Source: Candidatus Levyibacteriota bacterium (GTDB taxonomy: Bacteria > Patescibacteriota > Microgenomatia > Levybacterales > UBA12049). From it: DNA of 63,150 bases. Numbering within the stretch: the stretch's first letter is position 1; each line of letters opens with the position of its first letter. Shown one piece after another: positions 20,191 through 57,473 of the stretch. A program made the translations under genes and the position numbers. The stretch spans positions 3,726-66,875 of the forward strand of contig JBBDZP010000053.1 of NCBI GenBank assembly GCA_040900105.1. The letters are read 5' to 3'. Under the pieces are notes generated by a model. That model was not told the DNA's origin. It was given only the letters and a program-made list of their open reading frames with translations, and made no database searches.

Positions 20191-20205
20191 CAAAAATTAA
20201 CACAT

Positions 20206-32823: not shown

Positions 32824-33587
32824 GCATTTATTATAAATTTTAGATAGGATAACGGAAATCTAAGTGCAGAAAAAAACGAAAAAACAAAACCCTGCCAACT
32901 ATCCATGAATCCCTTGTGTCTTATGTAGGTTAACAAAAACCACCATACGGGAAGAATAAGTAAGTATTTTATAGCAGTAACTGGATTGTACCATTTCACA
33001 TTTGATTCTTTAAGCTGCTTTGCTATAAATGACGTATATCTTTGCCACCTTTTAAAGTACCTCTCAAACTCCGGGTCTGACATATGAATAAGGGGATTTT
33101 TTAAATATCCAATTTCCCCTTCAACTACTGCCTGTTCATGAACATCTTTCTGTGGCAATCTCCCTTTTCCTTTTCTGTAGAGTCTTAAAGTATAGTCCGG
33201 ATATTGTCCTCCTTTCATAAGAAACCTGCCCAAAAACCAATTTTCCCGAGGAATCCAGTATCCGTTTATATTTGAGCATTTGATATTTGAGATTTGAGAT
33301 TTGATTTCATCACGAAGTGATGGTGTTACTCTCTCATCAGCATCAAGCTGCAGAATCCATTCTCTTGTTGCCATATCGATTGCTTTCTGTTTATTAATGT
33401 GAAAATTCTCACGATTCTCTACGACTTTAGTTTTAGCATTGTATTTTTTTGCAATCTCAAGCGTTGCATCTTTAGATGTACCGTCAACAATTACAATTTC
33501 ATCTGCTAAATTCCTAACTGACTTAAGACAGTCTGGTAAATTTTTCTCTTCGTTGTAAGTTGCAAGAACTACAGAAATCGTCGCCAT
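32820..33587 (-). CDS. GT2 glycosyltransferase (WaaE/KdtX-like type with hydrophobic C-terminal tail), paralog A
   Basis: ISVVLATYNEEKNLPDCL, VIVDGTSKDAT, LDADERV, YWIPRENWFLG and the C-terminal FMDSWQGF region. Paralogs at 56724..57473 and 58386..59291. Contains a heptamer array. Confidence 0.8.
   Translation of the reverse strand: MATISVVLATYNEEKNLPDCLKSVRNLADEIVIVDGTSKDATLEIAKKYNAKTKVVENRENFHINKQKAIDMATREWILQLDADERVTPSLRDEIKSQISNIKCSNINGYWIPRENWFLGRFLMKGGQYPDYTLRLYRKGKGRLPQKDVHEQAVVEGEIGYLKNPLIHMSDPEFERYFKRWQRYTSFIAKQLKESNVKWYNPVTAIKYLLILPVWWFLLTYIRHKGFMDSWQGFVFSFFSALRFPLSYLKFIINA
33278..33305. repeat. Heptanucleotide tandem array (ATTTGAK)x4 on the plus strand, inside the GT2 gene
   Basis: atttgat atttgag atttgag atttgat at 33278..33305. 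A fifth copy (33270..33276) is separated by one inserted c. The minus-strand reading encodes EIKSQISNIKCSNIN. Confidence 0.9.
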
Positions 33588-35200
33588 AATTTATTACTCC
33601 ATCTATTATAAGATAGCACCAATAGTAAAGCAGCTGCGCTTATTAAGTCTGCAAATAATCTTAGCTTTGTTTCCGTATAGATAACTTCAACTATATGCAC
33701 TCCTCTATCTACAGGAAAGGTTATAAGTCCCCTACTATTCCGGTCTTGGAACTGAACCTCCACAGGCTGCGAATCAACTAATACTTTCCATCCCGGAAAG
33801 TACAGGGTATTTTCCCTGAATCTCGCGCTAGTTTTTACATCAACTGTGTATACATGCTTTGTGGCCTTCCTTTGGGTGACTTGGACAAGAGCATCGCCGC
33901 TTATCACCTCTATTTCTGCCGCTGCTCTTTTTTCCATAAACCTAACGGACCATATGGGTCCACTTTCTCCCGTATCTGTAGTAGAGTTATAAATTCCGGT
34001 AAAAAATTGCTCCGGCTTTTGAAGATATCCTTGGGCATGCCAATAATCCTTACTTAGGAGCAGTATTGTAATGGTAAAGACTATCAAGCTAATTTTTTCC
34101 AGCTTAGCAGGTATTTTAGAAAATACTAACGCGGCAAGAGCTGATGTTGAAAAAACGGTTATTGCTAAAAATCTCCAAGGAAATTGAAAGTTCTGAAGAA
34201 TTATGAATCTACTCCAAATAAAGTCGGAGACCGGCAACATTATAAAGATTGCCAAAATAGAATACGCAACTAAGGACAGGATAAGAACATTCTCCTTCTT
34301 TCTTTTATTCCAGAAAAATAAAACCGGAGAAAGTATAAGAAAAAGCAGGTGCAAAATTCCAATCTGTAGGGTAAACTCTCCCGTTCCCCCAAAGCTCCAT
34401 GGTCCGTAAAAAAGGCTTTTGATATCAACGAATCTTTCCAGATATGCTCCTTTGGTTACTATATTTCTAAGTGTATATTTTGCTTCAATAAGTCCTGGAA
34501 TCCAGAAAAATGCGGATAGGGCAAGACCAAACACCAGAATCGCCCCTAAGCTTATGAGGTAATCTTTTCTATCTTTCTTATAAAAACCCAGAATCGTGCC
34601 GTAAACTAATAAAAACGGCATATATATTAAACTTATTGCGTTGTGGGAAAGTACCAAGAAAGCAACGGAAATGCTACCTAGTACTACGTATTTAGCGTTT
34701 ATTTTTTTACTTAGTTTTAAAATAAAATACAGAGAGACTGGCATAAATGCAAAAGCAAGATTCTCGCCAATATCTCCTCGTACATACAAATCAACAAATC
34801 TATAAGGAGCATACATGTAGAGAATTGCTCCTACAAATGCCGGTCCCCTACGAAGGAACTCGGCAAGCCACATGAACATAAAAATCCCAGACAGTACCAT
34901 CCCTAAGCCAAAAACTATTTTTGTTGAATCAATTAGTGAATAGCCCATAAAATGGAAAAGGGAGGCGATGTAAGATGGCAGCGGATAAAGAAATTCAAGA
35001 ACAGGGTGTCCATATCCCCAGTTTAGGTTTGGAGCCCACCTTGGAATAACATTTCCCTCTGATAGATTTAAATAGAAATTGGCAATCCTGGCAACATGAT
35101 CTTGTCCATCATGGGTAAACGGGAGTCCGGAGTGAAACAACCCCAGCACAGGAACAAGACACATTGCAAGCAAGGTTACAATTAGAAGCTTTTTATACAT
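33569..35200 (-). CDS. PTPS-related/YfhO-like GT-C-type integral membrane protein (paralog 2 of 4)
   Basis: THDGQDHVARI, IPRWAPNLNWGYGHPVLEFLYPLPSY, APYRFVDLYVRGDIGE, FQFPWRF, and C-terminal YFPGWKVLVDSQPV...GLITFPVDRGVHIV plus a final TM. Confidence 0.7.
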   Translation of the reverse strand: MYKKLLIVTLLAMCLVPVLGLFHSGLPFTHDGQDHVARIANFYLNLSEGNVIPRWAPNLNWGYGHPVLEFLYPLPSYIASLFHFMGYSLIDSTKIVFGLGMVLSGIFMFMWLAEFLRRGPAFVGAILYMYAPYRFVDLYVRGDIGENLAFAFMPVSLYFILKLSKKINAKYVVLGSISVAFLVLSHNAISLIYMPFLLVYGTILGFYKKDRKDYLISLGAILVFGLALSAFFWIPGLIEAKYTLRNIVTKGAYLERFVDIKSLFYGPWSFGGTGEFTLQIGILHLLFLILSPVLFFWNKRKKENVLILSLVAYSILAIFIMLPVSDFIWSRFIILQNFQFPWRFLAITVFSTSALAALVFSKIPAKLEKISLIVFTITILLLSKDYWHAQGYLQKPEQFFTGIYNSTTDTGESGPIWSVRFMEKRAAAEIEVISGDALVQVTQRKATKHVYTVDVKTSARFRENTLYFPGWKVLVDSQPVEVQFQDRNSRGLITFPVDRGVHIVEVIYTETKLRLFADLISAAALLLVLSYNRWSNKLWRRFL

Positions 35201-35201
35201 T

Positions 35202-36842
35202 CTATTTTTTTATTGTAAAAATTTTGATTGTCTTTTCTCCATTGAGATTCTCTATGTCTTTTATGGTTTCTATTTCAGGCGCTAACTTTTCCTCCTGAAA
35301 AAATTGAGAATAGTTACCTATAATTAGGTTCCTGGACTTTTCTTCTTCTATGCTCACTGGCCTAAATTCGTATTTACCAAACTCATGCGTTACGTTATAT
35401 CCACCAGATACGGTCCCACCCTGCTCTTGATAAAGTTTTGGGTCATATTTGGTATAGAAAAGAAAAAACATATATGACTGCGCAAGGTTATCATTGTTTG
35501 CAAAAATTACAGACTTATAATTTTTTTCATTTTCTTGGACATATCCTATTGCTTGAGACAAAGAGTATTGGAAACTATCCGATTGAGTTTTTGGAAAAAC
35601 ATAAAAATATTGCCTTGAAAAGGTCCATAGGCTAGCAAAAACAATTACCAAGCCCGAGGCAAGCAGAACATTTCTCCGGATTTTTTTATGAACTAATGAA
35701 AACATATAAACCAGTCCCAGACCCGAGAATATTTGCCATGTCGGTAAAAAAACCAAAGTTCTTAGAGCGTGAGGAGAATCTGTAGTTAAGGAAGCCGCTA
35801 TTGGAGCTGACAAAAACCAGACAAAGATTAGGACCTTAATCTTTTTATCAAAGTCTAGGCGCAAGAGAAAATATATGCCCAACATTATGAGTGGTAACTC
35901 CCAAATATACATAAGGCCCACTCCTGGAACTTTATGTCTATCTCCTGACGAATTTGTGAAGAGCCACACAGGATTAAAATGAGAAAGATACGATTCCGCA
36001 AAAATTTGAGACGTTACCAATCTTCTGTTATATAGGACTTCTGAAATTTTATCATTTTGCAAGATTGCGCTTTGAAGTATGGAGAACTGGTCTGTATATC
36101 TTGACTTATTCAACTCAAAAACATTCGTAGCAGAAAATCTTATGAGAGCATTCGGAGATAAGGTTTCTCTGATAAAAGGAACTAAAATAATTAAGGAAAA
36201 TACCGCGGCTATTAATATTTGTTTTTTTTGCTTAAGAAGGTCTTTATAGAAAACTACCGCAAGTCCAAAAATAACTGCGGGGATAAAAAGTTTCTCCGTT
36301 TGATAAGAAATAAAAGATATTACAAAAAACAGTGCAGCAAGGTAGATGTTCTTTCTTAGGAAGAAATACATTGCAAAGACAAAAGCAGAAAAGGCCAAAT
36401 TAACTTCGTGCCCCAGTCTTGAAATATAAATATGCCACGGAGAGATTGCGAGCAAAAATGCGCAGGCCAACGCTATATATTCTGATCTAAGCAGTTTCTG
36501 TTTCCTAAACATCTCATTTACCAAAAAATAAGTAGCAAGGACTGTTAAAACAGAAAGGATTACTGACGGAAGTCTAACCGATAGAACACTTAATCCAAGA
36601 AGCTTAATAAAGGGAATAACCATATATACATAGGTAGCAGGTCTCCAGTCATCAAAAGCTCTTAAAAGTATTGGAAACTTATATCCATACTCGTCTCCCC
36701 CAGTAGTTAGAATAGAAAATGCATTCCATCCTATACTTGCCTCATCCAGCGATGTGCTTGGCGGAACATTTCCTAGCTGATAAGTTCTAAGTGCAAATGC
36801 TAGAAAAATTATTAAAAACAGGAAAATAAAGTTTTTCTTCAT
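35202..36842 (-). CDS. GT39/PMT_2-like GT-C membrane glycosyltransferase (tandem paralog 1)
   Basis: LRTYQLGNVPPSTSLDEASIGWNAFS...DEYG, ISPWHIYISRLGHE, SPHALRTLVFLPTWQI, and a conserved C-terminal soluble domain SYMFFLFYTKYDPKLYQ...FGKYEFRP. Confidence 0.75.
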   Translation of the reverse strand: MKKNFIFLFLIIFLAFALRTYQLGNVPPSTSLDEASIGWNAFSILTTGGDEYGYKFPILLRAFDDWRPATYVYMVIPFIKLLGLSVLSVRLPSVILSVLTVLATYFLVNEMFRKQKLLRSEYIALACAFLLAISPWHIYISRLGHEVNLAFSAFVFAMYFFLRKNIYLAALFFVISFISYQTEKLFIPAVIFGLAVVFYKDLLKQKKQILIAAVFSLIILVPFIRETLSPNALIRFSATNVFELNKSRYTDQFSILQSAILQNDKISEVLYNRRLVTSQIFAESYLSHFNPVWLFTNSSGDRHKVPGVGLMYIWELPLIMLGIYFLLRLDFDKKIKVLIFVWFLSAPIAASLTTDSPHALRTLVFLPTWQIFSGLGLVYMFSLVHKKIRRNVLLASGLVIVFASLWTFSRQYFYVFPKTQSDSFQYSLSQAIGYVQENEKNYKSVIFANNDNLAQSYMFFLFYTKYDPKLYQEQGGTVSGGYNVTHEFGKYEFRPVSIEEEKSRNLIIGNYSQFFQEEKLAPEIETIKDIENLNGEKTIKIFTIKK

Positions 36843-38521
36843 GGTGACACTATTTTCATTGCCGCTTTACCATCTGGATAATGAACTACAGAATCATAGC
36901 TTATACTTTTCGGAAAATCTATTTCCCTTCCAACAAATAAAATATCCCTCTCCTGTTGATCCTGTTCCCAATTTATTGGCCTGAATTCAAATTTGCCAAA
37001 TGTATGATTTTCCCTAAATCCACCTGACGCATTAACACTTTGCTTCTGATAAAGATCGGGCGGATATTTTAGGTAAAAAAGAAAAAACATGTAGGATTGG
37101 TCCATGGGTGCTTCGTTTGAAACAACAATTTTTCTATAGTTCCCTTCCACTTTTTTTACTTCAGGGATTACCTTTTCGTATCCGTATTGCCATTCTCCGG
37201 CATTAAAATAGTTTTGTTGCACGAAGTACTGATTGAGGTAATATGTAAAATTAAATACAGCAAGTAACAAATAACAAATAGCAAATAGCTTCGCAATTCT
37301 TATACCTGATACCTGATACCTGATACCTGATACAAAACTTAGCGATGTAATTATGCCAATTGCCGTAAATATCTGGAAGGTAGGAAGAAAATTTAAAGTT
37401 CTTACTGCGTGAGGAACACCGCTTGTAATAGACGCTGGTACTGGGGTAAGCAGAAACCATGCAAATATAAAAATCTTAGTTTTCTTACTAAAGGGACCAA
37501 ATAAAAGCATATAAATACCTATTAGAAGAAGTGGTAATTCAAAAATGTATAGAAGGCCCATGCTTGGAGCATGATGACGGCTTATATCTCCTCTTGTAAA
37601 AAGCCAATTTAAATCAAAGTGGGATAAATAACCCGACACTACTTCTTTAGCAAAAAGAATGCGGCGGTTGTCCAAAACCATTCCCAAAACATCATGGTTC
37701 TCCACATCCACAAGTACCCTCTTGGTACTTTCGGACAAGAGTTGGGTGCTGTCTGAGAAAACGCTGACACCTTTTGCCCGCTGCAGCGAACTCCTATCTG
37801 TAAGGATGTGGAAAAACATGGGGGCAACTATAAGAGCGCCTAAAACTGCTGCTCCTAAAATATACTTTTTAGGTTTTGCTAAAATCTCCTTTCTATAGAT
37901 AGTAATAAGGGTGAGTATTACAAGTGGTACAAAAACCTTCTCACTTTGATAGACGTAGATAGATAGGCCCGCAAAGACCGCTGATAATATAAAAAACCAA
38001 GGTTTTTTTAAACCTTTCAGAAAAAACAGCATGGAAAAGACATTAAATGAAAGGCCTACGTTTGATTCAAAAGCTATCCTGCTAAATTGGATATGCCACG
38101 GGGAAATTGCCAGAAGGAAAGTAGCAAGAATTGGAATGTCTATAGTAAATCCTCTTGCTTCAAGCTTTAGATTTTTCTGCCCAAAAAGTTCCCTTAATAG
38201 AAAGTAAACTGCAATAACTGTAAGTGTTCCAAAAAGAGCAGACACGAATCTTACAGCAAAAACATTCATTCCAAAAACTGCAACTACCGGTATTGCAAGA
38301 TAGGAATAAAGCGCAGGTTTGTAGTCGTCAAAGGAGCGCATAACTATTGGCAGGAACTTTCCGTATTCATCCCGGCCTGTTTGCATTAGGGAATAAGCAT
38401 TGTATCCCAACGATACTTCATCCCAGTCTGGAGAGACAGGAACCTTCCCCAATTGCCAAAATCGCAGAATCCCCCCAATAAGTAAAATCGCAGATAGCAG
38501 AATAAAGGTCTTTTTTTTCAT
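36839..38521 (-). CDS. GT39/PMT_2-like GT-C membrane glycosyltransferase (tandem paralog 2)
   Basis: LRFWQLGKVPVSPDWDEVSLGYNAYS...DEYG, ISPWHIQFSRIAFE, VPHAVRTLNFLPTFQI and SYMFFLFYLKYPPDLYQ...FGKFEFRP. Contains two adjacent heptamer arrays. Confidence 0.75.
   Translation of the reverse strand: MKKKTFILLSAILLIGGILRFWQLGKVPVSPDWDEVSLGYNAYSLMQTGRDEYGKFLPIVMRSFDDYKPALYSYLAIPVVAVFGMNVFAVRFVSALFGTLTVIAVYFLLRELFGQKNLKLEARGFTIDIPILATFLLAISPWHIQFSRIAFESNVGLSFNVFSMLFFLKGLKKPWFFILSAVFAGLSIYVYQSEKVFVPLVILTLITIYRKEILAKPKKYILGAAVLGALIVAPMFFHILTDRSSLQRAKGVSVFSDSTQLLSESTKRVLVDVENHDVLGMVLDNRRILFAKEVVSGYLSHFDLNWLFTRGDISRHHAPSMGLLYIFELPLLLIGIYMLLFGPFSKKTKIFIFAWFLLTPVPASITSGVPHAVRTLNFLPTFQIFTAIGIITSLSFVSGIRYQVSGIRIAKLFAICYLLLAVFNFTYYLNQYFVQQNYFNAGEWQYGYEKVIPEVKKVEGNYRKIVVSNEAPMDQSYMFFLFYLKYPPDLYQKQSVNASGGFRENHTFGKFEFRPINWEQDQQERDILFVGREIDFPKSISYDSVVHYPDGKAAMKIVSP
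37261..37288. repeat. Degenerate heptanucleotide array (CAARTAR)x4, adjacent to the previous array
   Basis: caagtaa caaataa caaatag caaatag at 37261..37288. Coding strand is CTATTTG CTATTTG TTATTTG TTACTTG, encoding LFAICYLLL, part of a TM helix. Confidence 0.75.
37302..37333. repeat. Heptanucleotide tandem array (ATACCTG)x4.6 on the plus strand (coding strand GTATCAG), inside the GT39 gene
   Basis: Four perfect copies at 37302..37329 plus the partial copy atac. Encodes VSGIRYQVSGIR in a loop that is about 7 aa longer than in the neighbouring paralogs. Confidence 0.9.
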
Positions 38522-40155: not shown

Positions 40156-40214
40156 CAAACAGACTTAAAGATATTATATCTAATTTAGTATATAATACAA
40201 ACCATATCATAGTA
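40156..40214. promoter_or_regulatory. Divergent intergenic region with candidate -10 boxes for both strands
   Basis: TATAAT at 40191..40196 lies 18 nt before the plus-strand ATG (40215). The palindrome AGATAT-T-ATATCT at 40169..40181 reads TATAAT on the minus strand, upstream of the GT39 operon start. No clear -35 or SD is seen. Confidence 0.35.
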
Positions 40215-48048: not shown

Positions 48049-48709
48049 CTTTCATTGCATGTAATTTTTTACCATCTTCATATCCCCGCGGCGTGGTGGT
48101 GATGGGTATTTCCAAAATCTTATATCCTCTTTTTAAAAGCTTTGATGTTATTTCAGGCTCAAAATCAAACCGCTTTGCTTTTAACTTCATATCTGTTACG
48201 GCTTTTTTTGGAAAAAGTTTGTAGCAGGTTTCCATATCCGTAAGCCATTGTCCATAAAGAATGCTAGTTAAAAGGCTTAAAAATCTATTGCCTAGATAAT
48301 GTATTAAAAACAAAGGTTTTCTTTCATCTCTTGAAAAATTTGGCAATCGCTTAAGTCTTGTCCCGTATACTACCTTTGCTTTCTTTTCCGTAACCTGGCT
48401 TAAAAGTTTCTTGATATCCTGGGGATCATATTCCAAATCCGCATCTTGGATAACTATATAATCTCCCGTGGCATGATGTATTCCTGTCTTTACTGCCGTA
48501 CCTTTACCGCTATTTTTATCATGGAAAAATACCTTAGTGTTTTTAAGATTTAATTTTTTCAGAATGCCAGGAGTCCCGTCTGTTGAACCATCATCAACAA
48601 CTATAACTTCTATATTAACAGAAGGCATTTTTAAAGCTTGTACTCTGTTGATAACTTTACCAATAGTCTTCTGCTCATTGAAGACCGGAATAATAATAGA
48701 TAATTTCAT
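47999..48709 (-). CDS. GT2 polyprenyl-phosphate sugar synthase-like glycosyltransferase (DPM1/GtrB type), soluble form
   Basis: KLSIIIPVFNEQKTIGKV, VVDDGSTDGT, GKGTAVKTG, QDADLEYDP and DMETCYKLF. Confidence 0.8.
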   Translation of the reverse strand: MKLSIIIPVFNEQKTIGKVINRVQALKMPSVNIEVIVVDDGSTDGTPGILKKLNLKNTKVFFHDKNSGKGTAVKTGIHHATGDYIVIQDADLEYDPQDIKKLLSQVTEKKAKVVYGTRLKRLPNFSRDERKPLFLIHYLGNRFLSLLTSILYGQWLTDMETCYKLFPKKAVTDMKLKAKRFDFEPEITSKLLKRGYKILEIPITTTPRGYEDGKKLHAMKDGTIALWTLFKYRFVN

Positions 48710-49656
48710 TCTTGCACAGAAGCTACAACTTCTCTATCTTTTTTTACAAACATTTTTTTTGACCTAGAATTAAATTCTATAACTTTTGGAAGTAATATGA
48801 AAGCACTAAACAGTCCTATAAAAAATGCCATGTCTAATCTTAAAAGCGCCTTTGCGATATGATAAGGGAGAAAAATAAGATGTTCTAATCTAATATCTAT
48901 ATCCGTAGCATTGCTCCAGACAAAGATAAACTGATTCCTGTATGCGATAGTTTTTACCTTGAATGGAGTATATGTTTTTTTAATTGCTCCTCTACTGTGC
49001 TCATGGAATACAATGCTTTCCGGTTCAAATAAAACTTTATAACCTGACTTTTGCGCCCTGTATGATAAATCTATATCCTCCCAGTAGAAAGGGTCATAGA
49101 GCTCATTCAATCCTCCCAGTTTTTCCCAAATGCTTCTCCTAAAAGCTCCGCTCCCCCCGCTTACCCATAGCGTATTTTTCTTACCAACATCCCCTCTTCT
49201 ATGAATAAGCAAACCTCTTTGCCAACTTCCCAAACCTCTTCCTCTTAAAACTACTCTATTGCCTTCAATGCTCTTATCCATGCACCCAACCGCAAAAACA
49301 TCCTCATCCTTAAAGTGCTTAAGAAGCGGTGTTAAAAGTCCTTTCTCGGAGTACACATCTGTATTTAAAAGCAATAAAATATCCCCCCTTGCTATAGATG
49401 CCCCCTTATTCACCGTCGAGGAGAACCCTAGATTTCTTTTGTTTTTAATAAATTTGAAACTTGAAATTTGTCCTGAGCTTGCCGAATGGATGAAATTTGA
49501 AATTACCGATTCGCTAGAATCGGTTGATGCATCGTCCACTACTATTACTTCAACGTCGCCGTCCTTATAATTTTGAAGCTCTTCAATGATTTTAGGAAGA
49601 TTTTTCTTCAATAAATTTTCCCCATTATAGTTTGGAATAACAACGCTAATGTTCAT
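48706..49656 (-). CDS. GT2 glycosyltransferase
   Basis: ISVVIPNYNGENLL, VVDDASTDSS, LLLNTDV and WEDIDLSYR (the ED motif typical of GT2 family members). Confidence 0.8.
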   Translation of the reverse strand: MNISVVIPNYNGENLLKKNLPKIIEELQNYKDGDVEVIVVDDASTDSSESVISNFIHSASSGQISSFKFIKNKRNLGFSSTVNKGASIARGDILLLLNTDVYSEKGLLTPLLKHFKDEDVFAVGCMDKSIEGNRVVLRGRGLGSWQRGLLIHRRGDVGKKNTLWVSGGSGAFRRSIWEKLGGLNELYDPFYWEDIDLSYRAQKSGYKVLFEPESIVFHEHSRGAIKKTYTPFKVKTIAYRNQFIFVWSNATDIDIRLEHLIFLPYHIAKALLRLDMAFFIGLFSAFILLPKVIEFNSRSKKMFVKKDREVVASVQE

Positions 49657-49657
49657 A

Positions 49658-51916
49658 TTAAAAAAGACTATTATAAAATACTATCTCATGTGTACCCTTT
49701 GGAACTAAGACTCCCCTAAAATTAAAATCGGTTAAATGAATTTTTACTTTTTTGCCATCGATTCTTGCTTTCCATGTTGGGTAGAAGCTGTCGGTTAAAA
49801 CCAGAAATCCTTCTTCGGTGTTTTGGGTTTTAACAATCACTTCGTTCTCATTATAATTTAAGATTTCTGCCGTTCCAACTCCAAAATTTCCGGATTCAAA
49901 GTTTTCAACCACCGCTAGATTATTTAAGGAATCTTTCTTGTCAAACAACATAACAACAGCTTCTTCCTTACTCTCCACGTCTACCACAACATTAACAAAA
50001 AATGCTCTTGGTAATACTTTTCTATTTTCATAAATTCTCGTCTCTCCCTCTTGAAAAACCTTGGTAAGATTTTCATTATCAACGTCTGAAAGACTCAATA
50101 CGTACTTCACTCCGAGCAAATTTATGATGCTTGATGAATAATTATGAGGATTTATAATTCTATTAAAACCGAAAGGTGGGTTGATGTTTGTGTTTCCGCG
50201 TTCAGATGCAGCGATTAGTTCTCCATATCTTAAAATATACAGCGGATCGTAGACATCTACGCTTTGAATTTTATAAACGGCTGAAAAATTAGGTGGAAAA
50301 ATTCTTGAATCTGTCGTCATAAACCTAAAATTTCCTAGATTTTCCTTAAGGTATGCTATGGTAGAGGTTGAAGGGAATAAATATTCTTTCTTAGTGAACG
50401 GATTAAATTTCAAGCTGAACCGTAGAAGGTCAATCATTACTAAAATAATGATTAAATACAAAACAGTCTGCAGAATCTTTTGATTCTTATAACGCCTTGC
50501 TAAGGCGTAACAGGTAATGATAACAATGGCCGCAAAAAACATAGCAGTTGGAAAAATAAGATTTTGTTTTGCAACAGATAGATGATCTACGGGTAAATAC
50601 TTATCTCCAAAAGTCACAAATGTCCACAAAGATATAAAGACTACCGCGATAAATCCCAGAGGATAAGCTATTCCTTTTCCGGTTTTAATAAACCTATCAA
50701 GGCCCAATGCCGCTAAAACACTTAACGAAAACCCTGTAATAAAAAGTAGCCTGGTTGGCTGGGATGTATCAACAAATGGGATATTAAGCATAAATGGAAG
50801 TTTTGCAAAAATTGTTGGAAGAGCAAAAATCAAAGACGCAAAAAATGCTGTACCGAAAAACAATGTTTTCTTGTCTCTTCTAAAAAATAGGGCAAATATG
50901 GAAAATATTAATGGCAGTATTCCAACATAACCAATAAATTCTCCCCAGTTCCATACTCCAAAATAGTTAAGCGTTACAGGATTTCCAAAAAAGTCCGGTG
51001 CGAAAAATTGGATAAGATGTTCCCAGGGGATAAACCAACCACCGGCTTGCCAATTTAAATCTATACCTCTGGCTGAAAGCATAATAAATTGCAACGTAGG
51101 GATCCACTGTACTGCGGTGAGTATTATGAATAGTGTAGTAAGTATTATGTATAAAAATAGTAAAATTTTCTTACTTTCTGAATTAAAAAATCTCGCAAGC
51201 AGATATGCAAAAGAAAAAATTATCAAATAAAAGAATACCTGTAAGTGACCTGCAAAAAATGATGAAGCAAGAGAAAAGAGATAAACAAAACTCCAAAGAA
51301 TGACATTTCTGTTTTTGATACTTACTATTTGATACTTACTATTTGATACTAACTTATCTATAGATAACAGAATAAGAGGAAGCCAAAGTGCTGTATGAAG
51401 AATTGTTCCCCACTCAAGCCAAGCGGTAAAGAACCCACACAGAGCAAATGTCATAGATCCTAGTACACTCGCTTCTTTTGAGAGTTTTAAATTAGATAAG
51501 TACATATACAGAAAAACTGCGGCAAGCAATGGTCCCAGAAATATAAGCAGGCTCCAAGCATAACTCATAGGCAGCATAAGAAATAGAATATTAAGGGGGT
51601 AAAAAGATGCGGACTGAAAATTTGCGAGAAGCGGTGCTCCAGCCGCGTTATACGGATTCCAAAGAGGAAGAGTGTTTTTTTTCTCAGCTTCTGCAACAAG
51701 CTGTTTCCACGGATACAATTGTCTCACAGGATCTGTAATTAGAGAATTTTTGAATGGTATCCCTCTTGGATAATCTTTTGCGTAAAGATCTCTAAAGGGG
51801 TGGTAGAGTCCAATAATAGTATCTGACGGGATTGGTAGGAGTCCCCGTGCTATGAATTGATAAAATAAAATTACTATGGCAGCTAAAATAAATAAAAACG
51901 GGAATAATTTTTTCAT
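49658..51916 (-). CDS. YfhO-family GT-C membrane glycosyltransferase
   Basis: 752 aa. DPVRQLYPW, LPLWNPYNAAGAPLLANFQSASFYPLN and C-terminal FYPTWKARIDGKKVKIHLTDFNFRGVLVPKGTHEI match my memory of the YfhO family. Contains a 14-nt tandem array. Confidence 0.7.
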   Translation of the reverse strand: MKKLFPFLFILAAIVILFYQFIARGLLPIPSDTIIGLYHPFRDLYAKDYPRGIPFKNSLITDPVRQLYPWKQLVAEAEKKNTLPLWNPYNAAGAPLLANFQSASFYPLNILFLMLPMSYAWSLLIFLGPLLAAVFLYMYLSNLKLSKEASVLGSMTFALCGFFTAWLEWGTILHTALWLPLILLSIDKLVSNSKYQIVSIKNRNVILWSFVYLFSLASSFFAGHLQVFFYLIIFSFAYLLARFFNSESKKILLFLYIILTTLFIILTAVQWIPTLQFIMLSARGIDLNWQAGGWFIPWEHLIQFFAPDFFGNPVTLNYFGVWNWGEFIGYVGILPLIFSIFALFFRRDKKTLFFGTAFFASLIFALPTIFAKLPFMLNIPFVDTSQPTRLLFITGFSLSVLAALGLDRFIKTGKGIAYPLGFIAVVFISLWTFVTFGDKYLPVDHLSVAKQNLIFPTAMFFAAIVIITCYALARRYKNQKILQTVLYLIIILVMIDLLRFSLKFNPFTKKEYLFPSTSTIAYLKENLGNFRFMTTDSRIFPPNFSAVYKIQSVDVYDPLYILRYGELIAASERGNTNINPPFGFNRIINPHNYSSSIINLLGVKYVLSLSDVDNENLTKVFQEGETRIYENRKVLPRAFFVNVVVDVESKEEAVVMLFDKKDSLNNLAVVENFESGNFGVGTAEILNYNENEVIVKTQNTEEGFLVLTDSFYPTWKARIDGKKVKIHLTDFNFRGVLVPKGTHEIVFYNSLF
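51314..51350. repeat. 14-nt tandem array (TACTATTTGATACT)x2.6 inside the YfhO gene
   Basis: Partial copy tttgatact at 51314..51322, then perfect 14-mers at 51323..51336 and 51337..51350. Coding strand is AGTATCAAATAGTA and encodes SNSKYQIVSIK. The loop is about 10 aa longer than in the YfhO paralog. Confidence 0.9.
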
Positions 51917-52971
51917 TTAATAATTTCCCTTAATTCTTTACAAAATCGCTCACCCGAAAAAAATTTAGCTCTTCTCTGCGCTGATTCGGACATTCTTTCA
52001 AGCAATATTTTATCTTTTACTAATTCTTCCGTTCTATTTTTAAGCTCCTCTAAAGTATCCCACAGAAAACCACTTCCCTTTTCAACTATTTCCTTTTGTC
52101 CTCCTGCGTTAATTACAATAGGAACGGCACCAGCCCCCATTGCCTCAACAGTTGAGATTCCAAAATGTTCCGCATACTCAGGATGCTCATTCAAATTTTC
52201 TCCATATCCTGCCGCATGCCAGTATATCTTAGATCTGGAATAAATATCCCAAAGCTCATTGCTTTCTTGGTTTATCAAAAATTCTATAGGATAGCCCTTT
52301 GCTGTTTTCTTTATTCTATCAAGCTCCGGTTCATCTTTCTTGGTGCACCCCGTTACTATCACAAGCTTCCATCCTCTTAATCCTTCTTCTACCATATTTT
52401 TAAATGCTCCAATCATTACGGTCTGTTTTTTAAAATCATCCAAGGGAATATTTTTGTATCTGAATTTTCCCACCGTCAAAACAATGTTTTCTTTTTTTAC
52501 ATCTTTTGTTTTTACTTCAACGGGAGGATACAAAACTACACCTTTTACTCCAAAGGTTTTATCTGCGTATGATTTCGTAAATTTTGAGTTATAGATAAAC
52601 TCAGCTACTCTTCTTATCTTAAGCTTTGCTTTTACGCTCGCCCTAACAAATGGTAGAGGCTGTTGGATGTGAACGTACAATTTCGAGGCGACAAACGGAA
52701 TACTTCCATCACTTAGAACAAACAGAAGATCATATTTTTTACTTTCGTTTAATCTCTTAAGAAACCCAACGTCTTTTGAAAATATATTTTTTGATAATTT
52801 GACTTTTGAAAGGCCTAAGGAAAACCTGTGCTTAAGTTTTTTAAAATCTTCTTCGTTGTCCCAAAAAATCGTAACGTTGTTGTCTTCGGAGAGACACTCT
52901 GCAATGCTTGTTATATATTTTTCCCCTCCGCCTAAGTCGTCTAAATAAGGATCGTAAATTCCAACCTTCAC
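51913..52971 (-). CDS. GT4 (GT-B) glycosyltransferase
   Basis: GTG start. C-terminal EHFGISTVEAMGAGAVPIVINAGGQKEIV (EX7E-like). ATGA overlap with the downstream YfhO gene. Confidence 0.75.
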   Translation of the reverse strand: MKVGIYDPYLDDLGGGEKYITSIAECLSEDNNVTIFWDNEEDFKKLKHRFSLGLSKVKLSKNIFSKDVGFLKRLNESKKYDLLFVLSDGSIPFVASKLYVHIQQPLPFVRASVKAKLKIRRVAEFIYNSKFTKSYADKTFGVKGVVLYPPVEVKTKDVKKENIVLTVGKFRYKNIPLDDFKKQTVMIGAFKNMVEEGLRGWKLVIVTGCTKKDEPELDRIKKTAKGYPIEFLINQESNELWDIYSRSKIYWHAAGYGENLNEHPEYAEHFGISTVEAMGAGAVPIVINAGGQKEIVEKGSGFLWDTLEELKNRTEELVKDKILLERMSESAQRRAKFFSGERFCKELREIIK

Positions 52972-53073
52972 AAGCTTATTCTAGCAACTTTTATCCCCGC
53001 CCGCCATAGCCTTGCCCAGACATTATGAGCGGACATATTGCAAAGCTTATAAAGGTATGATAATCTTAGCTTG

Positions 53074-53316
53074 ATGAATCCTTTCTCAGCGATTCCAAGC
53101 GCATTTCCGCCCTTAACATACCTTGTAATTTTGGTCTGGTCTCTTTTTTGGAAAGGACTTGCTCTATGGAGAGCGGCAAAATATGACCAAAGGAACTGGT
53201 TTATCGTAATTTTAATTGTTAATTTGGCGGGAATTTTAGAAATTATATATCTCTTTGGATTTGCTAAGAAAAAGCTTAGATTTTCCGAGCTAAAAATTTG
53301 GGAAACAAAGAAATAA
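53074..53316 (+). CDS. Small two-TM membrane protein, DUF5652-like
   Basis: LVILVWSLFWKGLALWRAAKYDQRNWFIVILIVNLAGILEIIYLF matches my memory of the DUF5652 pattern (W-K-G-x-A-L-W-x-A-A ... LGILEIIYL). The track uses the TTG at 53071; the ATG is at 53074. Its 3' end overlaps the convergent YfhO gene by 41 nt. Confidence 0.6.
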   Translation: MNPFSAIPSAFPPLTYLVILVWSLFWKGLALWRAAKYDQRNWFIVILIVNLAGILEIIYLFGFAKKKLRFSELKIWETKK

Positions 53317-55603
53317 CAACAATTCCCAAAGCTCCTCCTAACGCTAGCCAAAGCCCTATTGTAAAACTTTGAGGCTGATACCTGAATTTTACCAAATGCT
53401 TTCCACTTGTGACCGGCACTGCGCGGAATGTGTAGTTTGCTCTTAAGATTGGAACATTCTTGCCGTCTATCTCTGCCTTCCACCCTCTGTAATAATTATC
53501 TGACAGAAATAGCAACCCCGGCCTGGCAGAGGAGACTTCAATGTCTATTTCGTTGGGCTTATATTTTTTTATCTCCGCCAGGCCAACACTTTCCAGAGAT
53601 TTTAAAATCTCTGGATTCTCTTCAAGAATAATCTGTTTTCTAAGATCTATATTTTCTGAAACAAGATGGGTTATTATTTTTTGAGGGTCCTCCTCTACTA
53701 CGTAATCACCTACTAAAAAGGCACGGGGGGAAACATCTCTGTTCTCATAAATTTTATATGCTCGCTCCTGGTATATCTGGGCAAACTGTCCCCCCGGGTA
53801 AGTCCATACGGGGAATGTCCACCCCGCACCATCGTCAGAATTTTTATGAACCACATATTTTGTCCCCAAAAGATCCATCATGGCTGAGGTATTAGGACTA
53901 TCTTTTGGAAACATGACAACAGAACGGGAAGACTGCCTCAGCTTTCCATCTGCAATTGACGCGGCAAATTCCCCATATCTTTTTATGTAAAGAGCATCAT
54001 ATCCTTCAAGCGAAGGCAGCCTAAAGTAAATTGAAGCTTCGCCTCCAAAATTACTCATAATCCTGTTGGGGCTTGAGATTTGAGAGAAAGCAGAAGCTAC
54101 CGGAAGATCTGCGAAAACCAGATTTTTCGGAGAAAATTCCTGCCATTTACTGACAAACCGCAACATATCCAGCGATACTAAGACTAGAAGAAGTAAACCG
54201 CAAGCGTAAATGAATTTTTTATTTAGAGCGGAAAGAAGCACTATGCCTACCCCGGAGAAAAAAACTAAGGTTGGCAACTTAAGATTATTTTTTGCAATTA
54301 CGGCTTTAAGCGCTGGGATGTGAAACTCCAGATATACCGCCGCCCACATTAGAGCAATTAATGCTGCGAGAATGGAAAAAAAGATTGCTATCTTTTTTAT
54401 TTTTTTATCCTTGAGATCTCTGATCAAGCCGTCAAATCCAAACGCTGACAAAACCGCAAACATAAAACTATAAACAACAACAATCCTACTTGCTGCACTT
54501 GTTGAAATCACAGGAACTTTAACCCAGACTAAAAGATCTGCCAATTTAGTGTCCAGAGCAAAAAGAAGCGCGGCGGTGCCTGCGACAAGGAAAAATAGCA
54601 TCTCTTTTTTCTTCTTTACCGTTATCGCGTAAAGGGCAAGTATCAAAGGGATGACTCCAATAAATCCATTCCACTCCGCATAGTGTCCAAACCAATCATT
54701 TCTTGTAACAGGATTGCCAAAAAAATCCGGAGCAAAAAGCGTAGGAAGATAAGAAAGAGGAATTACTTCTGCTTTTTGGAAATTACTACTCCTGAAGGAT
54801 TGTAAATAAAATTCTGTAGATGGTAATAGTTGCGGCATGACAAGCAAGAGTCCAAAACCAACAAACAGTGATGTTTTTAAAAAGCTGCTTGAGTCCTTTG
54901 TAACAATCAATTTATATAAAATATATACGATTGCAAAAAGGAGAAAGTAAATACTTATCTGAAAATGTCCGCTAAAAAAAGACAGGAGAATTGTAAAAGA
55001 CAAAAGTGTTAAGAATCTTATTTTCTTTGTATTGAAATATTTTTCAACTGCAAAAAGGGTAAGTGGAAGTGGAAGTATTGCATATCCAAGCGTTCCATAG
55101 CCCATCCATGAAGTCATGAAACCACAAAACATAAATGAAATAGAAGAAATTAGACTGGCAATCTCACTTCTTTTAAGCGCTCTCACAAAAACATACATAG
55201 AAAGTCCCGCAAGTAGAGGCTGAAGAAGTATCAGAATGCTCCATCCGTCAACAAAAGGAAATATGAAAAATAATAGGTTGAGTGGTGAGAGAACAGCCGA
55301 TTGATAATTAGCAAGAAGCGGTGTACCTGCAAAACTGTAAGGATTCCATAGGGGAACTTGTCCGCTCTTCCAAATCTCAATTGCCAAATGTCTCCATGGA
55401 TATATTTGAGTTATTACGTCAGGCATTGCGCCATTTTTCACCGGTCCGGCAAACTGAGGATATGCACTCCATGGGGCAAAATTATTCAATTGGTAACTTG
55501 CTGCAAATGGGGCTCTGCCTTGTAGAAAATAAGGATTTGCAAAAATAAACCATATTACAAAAATAAAAATTAGCGGCCAAAATCTTAAACACAATTTCTT
55601 CAT
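53276..55603 (-). CDS. YfhO-family GT-C membrane glycosyltransferase
   Basis: 775 aa. DVITQIYPW, VPLWNPYSFAGTPLLANYQSAVLSPLN and C-terminal YYRGWKAEIDGKNVPILRANYTFRAVPVTSGKHLV plus a final TM. Confidence 0.7.
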   Translation of the reverse strand: MKKLCLRFWPLIFIFVIWFIFANPYFLQGRAPFAASYQLNNFAPWSAYPQFAGPVKNGAMPDVITQIYPWRHLAIEIWKSGQVPLWNPYSFAGTPLLANYQSAVLSPLNLLFFIFPFVDGWSILILLQPLLAGLSMYVFVRALKRSEIASLISSISFMFCGFMTSWMGYGTLGYAILPLPLTLFAVEKYFNTKKIRFLTLLSFTILLSFFSGHFQISIYFLLFAIVYILYKLIVTKDSSSFLKTSLFVGFGLLLVMPQLLPSTEFYLQSFRSSNFQKAEVIPLSYLPTLFAPDFFGNPVTRNDWFGHYAEWNGFIGVIPLILALYAITVKKKKEMLFFLVAGTAALLFALDTKLADLLVWVKVPVISTSAASRIVVVYSFMFAVLSAFGFDGLIRDLKDKKIKKIAIFFSILAALIALMWAAVYLEFHIPALKAVIAKNNLKLPTLVFFSGVGIVLLSALNKKFIYACGLLLLVLVSLDMLRFVSKWQEFSPKNLVFADLPVASAFSQISSPNRIMSNFGGEASIYFRLPSLEGYDALYIKRYGEFAASIADGKLRQSSRSVVMFPKDSPNTSAMMDLLGTKYVVHKNSDDGAGWTFPVWTYPGGQFAQIYQERAYKIYENRDVSPRAFLVGDYVVEEDPQKIITHLVSENIDLRKQIILEENPEILKSLESVGLAEIKKYKPNEIDIEVSSARPGLLFLSDNYYRGWKAEIDGKNVPILRANYTFRAVPVTSGKHLVKFRYQPQSFTIGLWLALGGALGIVVISLFPKFLARKI

Positions 55604-56748
55604 TTTCTTATTATATATTTGCGAGCAGATTCGTATAATGCTTTCGTAGCAATAATATAAATAAATGGAAGCAATGGCATAAAATATCTAACAGAAACAT
55701 TTCCCACCGATAGTAGGGCGCAGTAGGAAATTATCCAGAATAAAATTATTTTGTCTGCATTCTCCAGTTTTTTCTTTAATATTTTCTCTAAGAAAAACAA
55801 TATTGAAAGAATTGTTGAAATGGGCCATGCGATTATCCATTGAACATCCGAAGATATTGCCCTATCTGCCCACCATGTATGCCACCTGTTAAAAATCAAG
55901 AGATCCCAAAATGAAAGTATAATTCCAATCTCTGATTTGTGATATGTATAAATATATTTTTGAATACTGAATACACTTAACAGAGCATAACCATCCATAA
56001 TTGTTTTAAAATATGAAGCAATTAAAACAGCTAGCGATATAGGCAAAGTGAGGACGAAAGCAAAAATTTTCCTAATATCTCTTTCTAAGAGAAGATATGC
56101 AATAAATGCTAAAAGAAGAAATGCACCCAAAATAAAAAATCTGGTACTAATAACTGCTCCCAACATAACAGATACTAAAATAAACCATCTCGTATAATTT
56201 TTACTCCTGTTTGCCCTAATAAAAAAATATAAAGCAAAGATTATAAAAGGTAATTGAATCGGTTCTATAAGAGGCAAATTAACTGCAGTATTCAAAAAAA
56301 GAGGTTCGTTTAAAAAAACAGCCAAAGGTACAAGCGCCAGCAGGCTATTTTTAAGACTTGCTTTTGCTATTAAAAAAACTCCAAAAGCAGAAAGACCCAA
56401 AAGAATAATTGAAGTTGTTATCGCATTATCAAAAATAATAATCGAGAGCCCGATTAAATATAAACCGAGTGGAGGCTGGTCAGATAAAACCAGAATAGGA
56501 TTAGCTCCTCTTATAAGCGCTCCTCCCGCATACGCTTCCATAGTCTGGTCTGGAATTATCCCCGGATTTATTTTTGTAACATACTGCGAAGTTTCATAAG
56601 CCCGCTTTAGAGGTTCGTATTGATAGTTTCTGTAAAAGAAAGGCTCCCTATTTTGATAAAGCAGTATCGCGGGCCTTATTAAAATTAGAATCAAAAAACA
56701 CAACGCAAATATATTAGTTTTGTTTATCTTTTTCTTTGGAGCTCCCAT
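55600..56748 (-). CDS. Short PMT/GT39-like polytopic membrane protein (GT-C candidate)
   Basis: 382 aa. The first loop, DQTMEAYAGGALIRGANPILVLSDQPPLGLYLIGLS, resembles the PMT DE...HPPLGK motif region. About 9-10 TM segments. Confidence 0.45.
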   Translation of the reverse strand: MGAPKKKINKTNIFALCFLILILIRPAILLYQNREPFFYRNYQYEPLKRAYETSQYVTKINPGIIPDQTMEAYAGGALIRGANPILVLSDQPPLGLYLIGLSIIIFDNAITTSIILLGLSAFGVFLIAKASLKNSLLALVPLAVFLNEPLFLNTAVNLPLIEPIQLPFIIFALYFFIRANRSKNYTRWFILVSVMLGAVISTRFFILGAFLLLAFIAYLLLERDIRKIFAFVLTLPISLAVLIASYFKTIMDGYALLSVFSIQKYIYTYHKSEIGIILSFWDLLIFNRWHTWWADRAISSDVQWIIAWPISTILSILFFLEKILKKKLENADKIILFWIISYCALLSVGNVSVRYFMPLLPFIYIIATKALYESARKYIIRK

Positions 56749-57473
56749 AATCTTGCATAGGTTATAAAAATGCTAAAAGCCTGATACATACTTTCTATGA
56801 GTCCGGCTGTACCAACTTTAAATCCCTTTTGTAAGATATAGTAGTCAACAAAAGTTGATACCATAACCCGTGGAAATCTCCACCAGGACATCTTGGGGTG
56901 CCCGGCATCATACCTTAGCTGTGCTTCTACCTTTGACCATTCTATGGTCTTTTTGAGCATTTGGGAAAGATTTCTGTGCGTATAGTGGAGCAAGAATCCT
57001 GACAGCTCCCCTGATTTTCCGGTGGCGATTGGACTTTCATGTAATTTTCCCTCCCATCCTTTAAGATTTTCTCTTCTGAAGAGTCTTTCCATTTTTTCAT
57101 GCTGCGGCCATTCATGATTTCCTAAATAGAAATTCTTTCTTATAACTTTGTACGTCGCAATTTCAGAATATTTGATATTTGATATTTGATATTTGATATT
57201 TCGAGCAAGCTCGCTCGTTACTCTTTCATCCGCATCTACGTAAAACGCCCAATCTCCCGTTACTTGCTTAAGTCCCACATTTCTAAGCTGCGAAAAGTCA
57301 CTGGAGTCGACTCTCACAACTTTTGCGCCCATTCTTTCTGCAATTTGAGGTGTTCTGTCTTCTGAAGCATTATCAACAACAATTATCTCATCGCAAAAAG
57401 AAAGACTATCCAAGCAGTCCGCAATTCTTTCCTCTTCATTCTTTGCAATTACAATCCCCGATATTTTATTCAT
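56724..57473 (-). CDS. GT2 glycosyltransferase (WaaE/KdtX-like type), paralog B
   Basis: ISGIVIAKNEEERIADCL, IVVDNASEDRT, VDADERV, FYLGNHEW and HYTHRNLSQM. The track ORF (to 57683) runs 210 nt into the upstream gene. The ATG at 57473 gives the canonical N-terminus with an 8-nt overlap. Contains a heptamer array. Confidence 0.8.
   Translation of the reverse strand: MNKISGIVIAKNEEERIADCLDSLSFCDEIIVVDNASEDRTPQIAERMGAKVVRVDSSDFSQLRNVGLKQVTGDWAFYVDADERVTSELARNIKYQISNIKYSEIATYKVIRKNFYLGNHEWPQHEKMERLFRRENLKGWEGKLHESPIATGKSGELSGFLLHYTHRNLSQMLKKTIEWSKVEAQLRYDAGHPKMSWWRFPRVMVSTFVDYYILQKGFKVGTAGLIESMYQAFSIFITYARLWELQRKR
57168..57201. repeat. Heptanucleotide tandem array (ATATTTG)x4.9 on the plus strand (coding strand ATATCAA), inside the GT2 gene
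   Basis: Four perfect copies at 57168..57195 plus atattt. Encodes NIKYQISNIKY. It occupies the same loop position as the array in paralog A (33278..33305). Confidence 0.9.

Follow-up and report, generated by a model that had tools for sequence, protein, structure and literature searches.

Heptamer arrays in glycosyltransferase genes of a Levyibacteriota glycan island: probably fixed-length, self-homogenising coding microsatellites, with no sign of use as on/off switches

Do tandem repeats with a unit of seven nucleotides, found inside genes for glycan-building enzymes, act as genetic switches? The question is raised by a 63,150-nt stretch of DNA (the window) from a metagenome-assembled genome (MAG) of Candidatus Levyibacteriota, a member of the candidate phyla radiation (CPR)/Patescibacteria, in which four minus-strand glycosyltransferase genes each carry a short array of 7-nt or 14-nt units built around the core RTATCAR. 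The original prediction, made from the sequence of this window, read these arrays as contingency loci. Non-triplet microsatellites are normally depleted from coding DNA. Our analysis of the window, of related genomic loci and of metagenomic contigs points to another reading, to which we assign a probability of about 0.65: the arrays are heptanucleotide microsatellites that homogenise themselves and are filtered by selection to increments of three units. They belong to a heptamer class that dominates among Levybacteria and other Microgenomates, the CPR lineage concerned, and that extends beyond glycan genes; we noted no sign of its use as a switch, whether regulated or selected, between on and off.

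All four arrays were recovered by Tandem Repeats Finder (TRF) and by direct reading, on the coding strand and where the original prediction had placed them. The family-2 glycosyltransferase GT2b (56724..57473, minus strand; 249 aa; PF00535, precomputed for the identical protein P0001 of a 75-kb NCBI contig) holds a perfect 34-nt array of 4.9 ATATCAA units (57168..57201, minus), which encodes RNIKYQISNIKY at residues 91–102. A GT39/PMT_2-type membrane glycosyltransferase (36839..38521, minus; 560 aa; PF02366, weak, and PF13231), hereafter GT39, holds a perfect 32-nt array of 4.6 GTATCAG units (37302..37333, minus; VSGIRYQVSGI, residues 397–407). In the YfhO-family membrane glycosyltransferase (49658..51916, minus; 752 aa; PF09586), the unit is the 14-nt AGTATCAAATAGTA, itself two diverged heptamers, in 2.6 perfect copies (2.9 by TRF) at 51314..51354 on the minus strand (SNSKYQIVSIK, residues 188–201). 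Lastly, GT2a (32820..33587, minus; family 2, 255 aa; PF00535; 34% identical to its paralogue GT2b) carries an imperfect mix of about five ATCTCAA/ATATCAA units with 81% matches (33268..33305, minus; residues 95–107, IKSQISNIKCSNI). The arrays of GT2a and GT2b occupy a homologous position, right after the DADERVT motif, therefore the four genes represent three independent array sites and not four. All positions are mid-gene, at 36–71% of gene length.

The arrays had been placed in loops between conserved blocks, which is only partly right. In an AlphaFold model of GT2b (pLDDT, the predicted local distance difference test score, 91.6), residues 91–102 form the C-terminal part of helix 87–98 and the following turn, so this site is, as modelled, more than a simple loop: a variable element of the surface. 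Moreover, GT39 contains a fifth array, missing from the original prediction, that encodes the membrane-helix segment LFAICYLLLAV (residues 411–421): 4.4 units of ATTTGCT with 87% matches (37259..37289, minus), 12 nt downstream of the GTATCAG array.

As predicted, the four listed arrays are currently in frame, their units (7 or 14 nt) are not divisible by three, and gain or loss of a single unit truncates each enzyme; the computed products are 105–108 aa for GT2b, 104–152 aa for GT2a, 404–425 aa for GT39 and 188–194 aa for YfhO. Because a heptamer is read in all three frames, the encoded peptides are 7-residue-periodic (NIKYQIS-NIKY, IRYQVSG-IR, SKYQIVS-IK). The common orientation of the arrays relative to their genes is likewise true but uninformative: it is forced, because the complement, YTGATAY, holds TGA in all three frames. 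For this reason, we rejected orientation as a mark of shared origin.

Arrays of this kind are not expected from base composition. Three arrays in the window have at least 14 nt of perfect period identity, whereas none appeared, at any period from 2 to 24, in 2.5 Mb of sequence simulated from the window in 40 runs of a first-order Markov model. Perfect arrays of at least three copies also number three in the 63 kb, two of them being the ATATCAA and GTATCAG heptamers, and a looser criterion (at least 18/21 matches) gave matches at periods 7 and 14 only.

To place the window arrays in their lineage, species-representative genomes were scanned with the alignment of GT2b (A1, 36 orthologues), which gave 80 Levybacteria/Patescibacteria loci (1.3 Mb), or 81 loci and 1.36 Mb with the window. 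At a threshold of 14 nt of perfect period identity, 39 arrays had period 7, 14 had period 14 and six had period 21; all remaining periods between 2 and 24 together gave five, and periods 3, 6, 9 and 12 none. The run-length histogram at period 7 was bimodal, with a mode at an array length of 32–33 nt, i.e. 4.6–4.7 units. No in-gene array exceeded 5.3 units, and the lone longer array (7.9 units) was intergenic. About 55 of 60 arrays lay inside long intact open reading frames (ORFs), in loci that hold almost no intergenic DNA. All 65 in-gene heptamer arrays of the 81 loci kept the frame (0/65 frameshifted, 95% upper bound ~4.5%); six apparent frame shifts turned out to be junctions between separate genes, GT2b and the next one.

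That junction, where GT2b stops and the following gene starts, is an array hot spot of its own (L008 8770-8788, L013 2864-2881, L022 10733-10765, L029 10753-10784, L034 6250-6281 and L064 10748-10802). ATG and TGA occur in some of its units (AAAATGA, AAAAATG), and the L064 array, AACCATT ×7.9, is the intergenic one that is the longest of the data set. Junction arrays could affect translational coupling or start-site choice.

Within genes, YfhO, three GT2 subfamilies, PMT_2-like proteins, GT39 and GT1 proteins have array positions that are shared between orthologues. In GT2b and its paralogue this hot spot is the helix-turn that follows DxDE, and in a second GT2 type it is the stretch behind DDxSTD; YfhO has one in a loop (aa 190–205) and another in a membrane helix (aa 250–287), PMT_2-like proteins have theirs in membrane helices, and that of GT39 is at aa 391–397. 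The window has a weak representative of the DDxSTD site, CAAATTT ×3.0 with 85% matches (49450..49470, minus), which encodes QISSFKF just after that motif (aa 63–69 of the GT2 at 48706-49656); 14 related GT2 proteins carry perfect arrays there. At the three window sites, RTATCAR-type arrays were found again in GT2b of L003 and L021, in YfhO of L010, L012 and L034, and in the GT39 orthologue of L077 (557 aa; AAATATC ×3.9, KISNIKYQIL, at aa 391). The hot spots carry arrays of several motifs. GT2a orthologues have perfect arrays of AGACCAA, AGCCATC, AAAATCC, AAAATCA or CCACGAG at the same spot, the YfhO loop has AATATCA, GTATCAA or AAATTTC arrays in L010, L012, L034, L038 and L051, and the YfhO transmembrane hot spot in L008 and L009 has TGCTATT/TGTTATT (LLFAICF/LLFVICY), of the same motif class as ATTTGCT. 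The YfhO loop measures 24–29 aa without arrays, 32–37 aa with arrays, and then 43–46 aa; this loop grew in steps of seven residues (21 nt). An exact insertion of seven residues fits the YfhO loop but was rejected as a rule for every site, since it fails for GT39 and for GT2b, in which the region is about equally long with or without an array.

We next consider how stable the arrays are. An identical, perfect GT2b array occupies the same site in L003 and L021, whose GT2b proteins share 82% and 62% amino acid identity with that of the window. DNA identity between the window and L003 genes is 79%, and the synonymous codons of the two agree at 11 of 12 positions inside the array as against 58% elsewhere in the gene; the array is the sole stretch of at least 33 nt that is 100% identical between the two. 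Full-unit number and protein-region length are equal in GT2b orthologues of 62–82% identity, and other orthologues retain decayed versions (IKYHISNIK, IKYEVSSMK, IKFQISNI). For the window species itself, the nearest GT2b relative in the protein database is 82% identical. Exact-protein look-ups for GT39, YfhO and GT2 returned only Logan contigs of a single run, SRR27977660, 100% identical to the window, and those for GT2b, a 382-aa neighbour and a 690-aa PMT_2 protein returned no match. In two Levybacteria populations and one TsaD population recovered from several metagenomes (L218-L227, L211-L213 and L205-L210), at 0–2% flank divergence, none of 21 array-by-strain comparisons showed a length change. 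The comparison of orthologous loci, from which unit-number variation had been anticipated, therefore went against the original prediction.

One of these Levybacteria populations shows a small change of another kind just downstream of GT2b, in intergenic DNA or the 5' region of the next gene: L211 (9459-9473) on the one hand and L212, L214, L215 and L217 on the other differ by two changes 14 nt from each other, a deletion and an insertion of 2 nt each, which make up a compensating frameshift pair. The called start of the gene after GT2b also differs among these contigs (354 or 375 aa).

Are the arrays a property of glycan genes? The window cannot answer this. At 35–39% GC, it is one continuous 63-kb glycan island in which Pfam annotation marks nearly all genes as glycan-related: about a dozen GT2, six GT1/GT4 and ~15 membrane GT-C enzymes (PMT_2, PMT, PTPS_related, YfhO and GT87 types), together with two flippases, sugar-nucleotide epimerases, dehydratases, aminotransferases and methyltransferases. 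Such genes make up the whole window and every related locus, which leaves the location of the arrays in glycosyltransferase genes uninformative. Seven glycan-related families (six of glycosyltransferases, and a flippase) make up ~80% of the DNA in the 80 loci and most of the rest is glycan- or membrane-like, and we discarded these loci as a non-glycan background. Two details of gene structure in the island should be recorded. A longer ORF (56724-57683) would add 70 codons upstream of GT2b and overlap the preceding GT2 gene (57466-58386), but the extension (57474-57683, minus) is spurious: 57473 is where the database protein P0001 begins, as do the orthologues. The top-scoring tandem repeat of the window, at 19225-19290, does not have period 7: it is a 33-nt direct repeat (×2.0, 84% matches) within a GFO_IDH_MocA oxidoreductase gene (19006-20193), an in-frame duplication of 11 residues (LSFAINLYMRT / LSFATSLYMRT).

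Metagenomes gave a broader view. A scan for RTATCAR ×4 found at least 120 contigs with GC contents of 0.16–0.71, an apparent ubiquity that stands without a baseline from control heptamers. Among the matches listed, arrays reached 18.6 units where no long ORF covered them and were mostly 4.0–5.7 units long within long ORFs; only 3 of 50 listed ORFs with RTATCAR ×4 or more encoded glycosyltransferases. The others included TsaD, MnmA, MiaA, DnaX, a class-I tRNA synthetase, GatB, PurH, a penicillin-binding protein, GAPDH and KsgA. The contigs listed held 65 further period-7 arrays of other motifs, and apart from the multiples of 7 no period had more than 14. One gene can hold several: that for a class-I aminoacyl-tRNA synthetase on a metagenome contig of 40% GC (L115 6185-8338) carries three in-frame heptamer arrays, AAGTATC (6776-6806), GGAAAAT (7429-7463) and GAAAATG (7591-7624).

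Among these proteins, TsaD with the peptide KYQISNIKYQK comes from CPR Microgenomates, with source names that include Gottesmanbacteria and Patescibacteria. The 120 closest CPR TsaD orthologues (P0121-P0240) contain 38 lag-7 peptide repeats in 43,399 aa, and 0–8 at other lags; the identical test on 120 GT2b orthologues found 11 in 30,299 aa, so the enrichment in surface genes for which the original prediction suggested a test was not seen. A segment between PGGP and PRP (PGGP..PRP) is 19 aa long in 44 of 105 TsaD orthologues and internally 7-periodic, and yet its motif differs in nearly every species (KFKIQNS, KLKVKSE, KFEIRNS, QPTTNNQ and others). Perfect DNA arrays in tsaD were verified in L204-L210. 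The TsaD hot spots lie at ~aa 190–210, the site of the 19-aa segment, and 290–330, and the arrays of L204 at 10586-10618 and 10886-10920. Judged from sequence, this pattern bears the mark of concerted evolution, acting on a repeat of fixed length. Because tsaD is essential, an on/off function is ruled out for its arrays.

The shared core remains odd, as the original prediction had remarked. In the Levybacteria loci, rotations of RTATCAR account for 0.54% of stop-free coding-strand heptamers but for 8 of 39 perfect period-7 arrays (~20%), although these eight represent about four independent sites. The common generating mechanism that had been proposed for it draws support from this excess, and is weakened by the many other motifs at the same hot spots. 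The core is also related to a heptamer already described: TAACTGA, taken from the other strand and rotated, becomes TTATCAG, one base from GTATCAG and two from ATATCAA. In the TAACTGA register, the window units read TACCTGA (one mismatch) and TATTTGA (two mismatches), and TAACTGA itself is absent from them. Contig L161 (1262-1370) contains a composite of adjacent TCAGTTA units (TAACTGA class), TATCAGG units (RTATCAR class) and CAGATAA units. Such adjacency suggests that the two motif classes interconvert.

Outside genes, the motif behaves differently. Two contigs of ~70% GC from sibling samples carry (CTGATAC) ×4.7 (L130 3359-3391) and ×8.7 (L131 932-992), exactly four units apart between flanks that are 99.8% identical; because the copy number differs, the motif can be unstable when long and non-coding. 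This array lies between genes; on the opposite strand, an ATG follows 5 nt after it. We rejected this pair as an in-gene frameshift polymorphism, as the long "ORFs" that cover the array are antisense artefacts.

How might such arrays arise and persist? We propose that the nascent strand misaligns by 7 nt from short local seeds, for example Asn-Ile-Lys written as AAT-ATC-AAA, which contains ATATCAA. The motifs of in-gene arrays are stop-free in all three frames, and because only stop-free motifs persist, their orientation relative to the gene is fixed. Selection would then pass only additions of three units (21 nt, 7 codons), and arrays would be seen at 4–5 units (32–33 nt) because only multiples of three added units persist. 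The arrays sit in helix-turn, loop or membrane-helix segments that tolerate them. Once formed, an array would last very long at a fixed length, kept perfect by homogenisation within the repeat, i.e. by concerted evolution; one possible route is a transient one-unit misalignment that copies the neighbouring unit and leaves the length unchanged. The effect would be to remodel loop length and sequence in glycosyltransferases and housekeeping enzymes alike, and a rare single-unit slip would knock the gene out.

Several points weigh against this reading. The slippage and homogenisation steps are inferred, not observed. To grow from ~1.6 to ~4.6 units, an array would have to pass through frameshifted intermediates or gain three units at once, and neither was seen in the loci examined. 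Generic slippage leaves unexplained both the preference for RTATCAR, ~30-fold over its k-mer frequency, and the occurrence of RTATCAR arrays in genomes of up to 71% GC. The housekeeping-gene arrays are known from other genomes and not from that of the window organism. Furthermore, the consensus sequences of MAGs and contigs conceal minority variants, and two contigs of independent assemblies terminate inside ATATCAA arrays: Logan contig L203, from the same sample, at window position 57173, and L223 at L218 position 13503. These ends could reflect unit-number heterogeneity in the reads. We rejected them as proof of heterogeneity, since identical arrays elsewhere in a community also branch assembly graphs. 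The arrays in which L203 and L223 end are shorter than, or about equal to, typical assembly k-mers. Because consensus hides minorities, because two contigs end in arrays and because the YfhO loop changed in length by steps, there is residual doubt over low-rate switching in highly paralogous families.

If the arrays were contingency loci, slipped-strand gain and loss of heptamers would switch individual glycosyltransferases and diversify the surface glycan within a population, as in neuO. We consider this unlikely, despite a fair number of observations that agree with it. One unit more or less truncates all four enzymes, three of the arrays are perfect or near-perfect, and the island contains so many paralogous GT2, YfhO and PMT_2 genes that single knock-outs may be tolerated; the 7-aa growth steps of YfhO imply past frameshifted intermediates or three-unit jumps, and an intergenic array of the same motif does vary by four units (L130/L131). 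There is also the precedent of neuO, a heptamer variable-number tandem repeat inside a glycan-modifying gene (PMC8653822), and the two contigs that break inside ATATCAA arrays, although these breaks are ambiguous for the reason given above. However, the reading fails on length, position, variability, off alleles and gene-class specificity, and is for these reasons unsupported. The in-gene arrays have only 4–5 units, and in the 1.36 Mb of loci never more than 5.3, compared to 14–39 in neuO and 13–38 in hmw (PMC8653822, PMC2651432); they lie mid-gene, whereas in species whose phase variation uses coding simple sequence repeats (SSRs), these are enriched near protein N-termini (PMC3315296); orthologues of 62–82% identity retain the unit number and region length; neither a frameshifted in-gene array nor a strain-level length change was found among the 65 arrays and 21 comparisons; and equivalent arrays occupy essential genes, in which the off state would be lethal.

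If a dedicated or sequence-specific process makes and maintains NTATCAR arrays, be it the addition of units from a template, a very small mobile element or a protein that binds a functional site in DNA or RNA, the four arrays would be copies of a single element and would not stem from local slippage. The over-representation of RTATCAR among perfect arrays speaks for it, as do the spread of the motif over contigs of very different GC content, intergenic as well as within ORFs and up to 18.6 units long, its distance of a single base from TAACTGA, which is spread across phyla (PMC4679880), the adjacency of both unit classes in L161, and the conservation of the GT2b array DNA above the synonymous background. 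We nevertheless find such a process doubtful: AGACCAA, AGCCATC, AAAATCC, AAATTTC, CCACGAG and TGCTATT form equivalent arrays at the same hot spots, the motif of the TsaD hot spot varies from species to species, local seeds for slippage exist, no associated gene or flanking signature was seen, and the metagenomic abundance of RTATCAR comes with no baseline from other heptamers. Selection on the protein, for a 7-residue-periodic peptide such as an amphipathic helix or heptad, with DNA periodicity a by-product of codon usage, is very improbable, and we rejected it on the codon analysis and on the species-specific motifs at one site. It would agree with the modelled position of the GT2b array on a surface helix, with the conservation of IKYQISNIK, IKYHISNIK and IKYEVSSMK among orthologues, and with the finding that the poly-psi heptads of neuO affect enzyme activity (PMC8653822). 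But perfect 7-nt periodicity needs specific and partly non-preferred codons (ATC/ATA for Ile, TCA for Ser), codon agreement with L003 is far higher inside the array than elsewhere, peptides at one site are wholly different between species and yet periodic (KFKIQNS, QPTTNNQ, KLKVKSE), and the same DNA motifs are also found between genes. Finally, low GC content and the tendency of tandem repeats to disturb assemblies might suggest chance low complexity or a sequencing or assembly artefact. This has practically no chance of being right: it is excluded by the composition-matched simulations, by the independent Logan contigs of SRR27977660, which are identical to the NCBI MAG in the arrays of GT2a, GT39 and YfhO and in most of that of GT2b, and by orthologous arrays in dozens of independent MAGs and metagenomes.

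A wider form of our reading is conceivable, though we hold it only tentatively and think it rather improbable: CPR bacteria, and possibly other phyla, may have an undescribed, sequence-biased process that writes and re-homogenises heptamer arrays of ~4–5 units at tolerant coding sites, with NTATCAR, closely related to TAACTGA, as the favoured unit, so that protein loops, in essential genes or not, evolve by concerted evolution of a non-triplet microsatellite; in paralogous glycosyltransferases, the arrays could double as low-rate frameshift switches.

The microsatellite reading has consequences beyond this island. Non-triplet arrays are here the dominant class of tandem repeat, in frame, at conserved positions and in essential proteins included, which is unusual. 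They stay perfect where synonymous sites are largely randomised, while the motif drifts between species. They offer a natural system in which to ask why bacterial slippage favours units of 7 nt, a question dating from SSR surveys of 2007, how repeats are homogenised without a change in length, and how loops evolve in steps of seven residues. On the practical side, the arrays break short-read assemblies and can yield spurious frameshifts or false calls of "phase-variable genes" in CPR MAGs. Had contingency loci been borne out, phase variation would have gained a first example among uncultured CPR bacteria, and the contrary evidence prevents a mis-annotation. No description of such arrays came up in our literature search, which paired heptamer repeats with CPR/Patescibacteria or with concerted evolution of coding DNA.

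How do the arrays compare with known heptamer systems? The closest in geometry is neuO of the Escherichia coli K1 prophage CUS-3, in which (AAGACTC)n of 14–39 units at the 5' end permits expression only when the unit count is a multiple of three; colonies differ in unit number, 1–2% of cells switch over four generations and off alleles are common (PMC8653822). As here, a coding heptamer repeat in an enzyme that modifies a surface glycan is read in three frames as a 7-residue repeat, and full-length translation occurs only at certain unit numbers. By contrast, the window arrays are short (4–5 units) and mid-gene, their unit number is constant across species, and they have neither off alleles (65 arrays) nor strain variation (21 comparisons). 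In Haemophilus influenzae, (TGAAAGA)13–38 lies in the hmw1A/hmw2A promoters, (AATTTTG)14 within the hmw1a ORF, and there are AACAACC tracts (PMC2651432). The 7-nt unit, the link to surface structures and slipped-strand mispairing are common ground; the Haemophilus tracts, however, are mostly in promoters, long and variable between strains, and a frameshifted allele was observed, of which none was seen for the in-gene arrays here. Of the properties of phase-variable loci, the window arrays have only the geometric one (an in-frame unit not divisible by three, with truncation on slippage); their tracts of 2.6–4.9 units fall well short of the 13–39 in known heptamer loci.

The arrays fit the class of heptanucleotide long SSRs, apart from being coding. 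TAACTGA arrays are found in marine Beggiatoaceae, cyanobacteria and some Bacteroidetes, with no known mechanism of transfer, and TAACTGA is the only array-forming heptamer in a Beggiatoaceae genome (PMC4679880). They share with the arrays described here sets of 2–6 units scattered across phyla, a similar peptide (LSVISYQ, compared to VSGIRYQ and ISNIKYQ), translatability only in the "reverse" orientation and, in the case of L130/L131, an intergenic position 5 nt upstream of an ATG. Yet TAACTGA sets are overwhelmingly intergenic, directly upstream of start codons in forward orientation, and of a single motif, whereas our arrays are in-gene and in frame, in reverse orientation in the window, of many motifs, and from a CPR lineage not covered by PMC4679880. 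More generally, heptanucleotides are the most abundant class of long SSR in several bacterial groups, and a 7-nt polymerase contact was proposed as the cause (PMC4679880, PMC4692102). Like the short tandemly repeated repetitive (STRR) sequences of this class, our arrays are head-to-tail direct repeats of 7 nt with period 7 dominant (59 arrays at periods 7, 14 and 21 versus five others), several motif families per genome (in the window ATATCAA, GTATCAG, ATTTGCT and CAAATTT) and composite arrays (L161, L178, L098 and L129). A preference for four units is shared too, 56% of the GGGAATC repeats of Xanthomonas campestris having four. The known members (STRR, GGGAATC, TAACTGA) are predominantly intergenic and under-represented in coding regions, and the preference for four units has been attributed to G-quadruplex formation; here ~55 of 60 arrays lie in intact genes and are A/T-rich, and the mode of 4–5 units is as expected from preservation of the frame, one unit plus three. 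Collectively, this comparison identifies the feature as a variant of the known heptanucleotide SSRs that is coding, fixed in length and self-homogenising, and that is lineage-wide in CPR bacteria.

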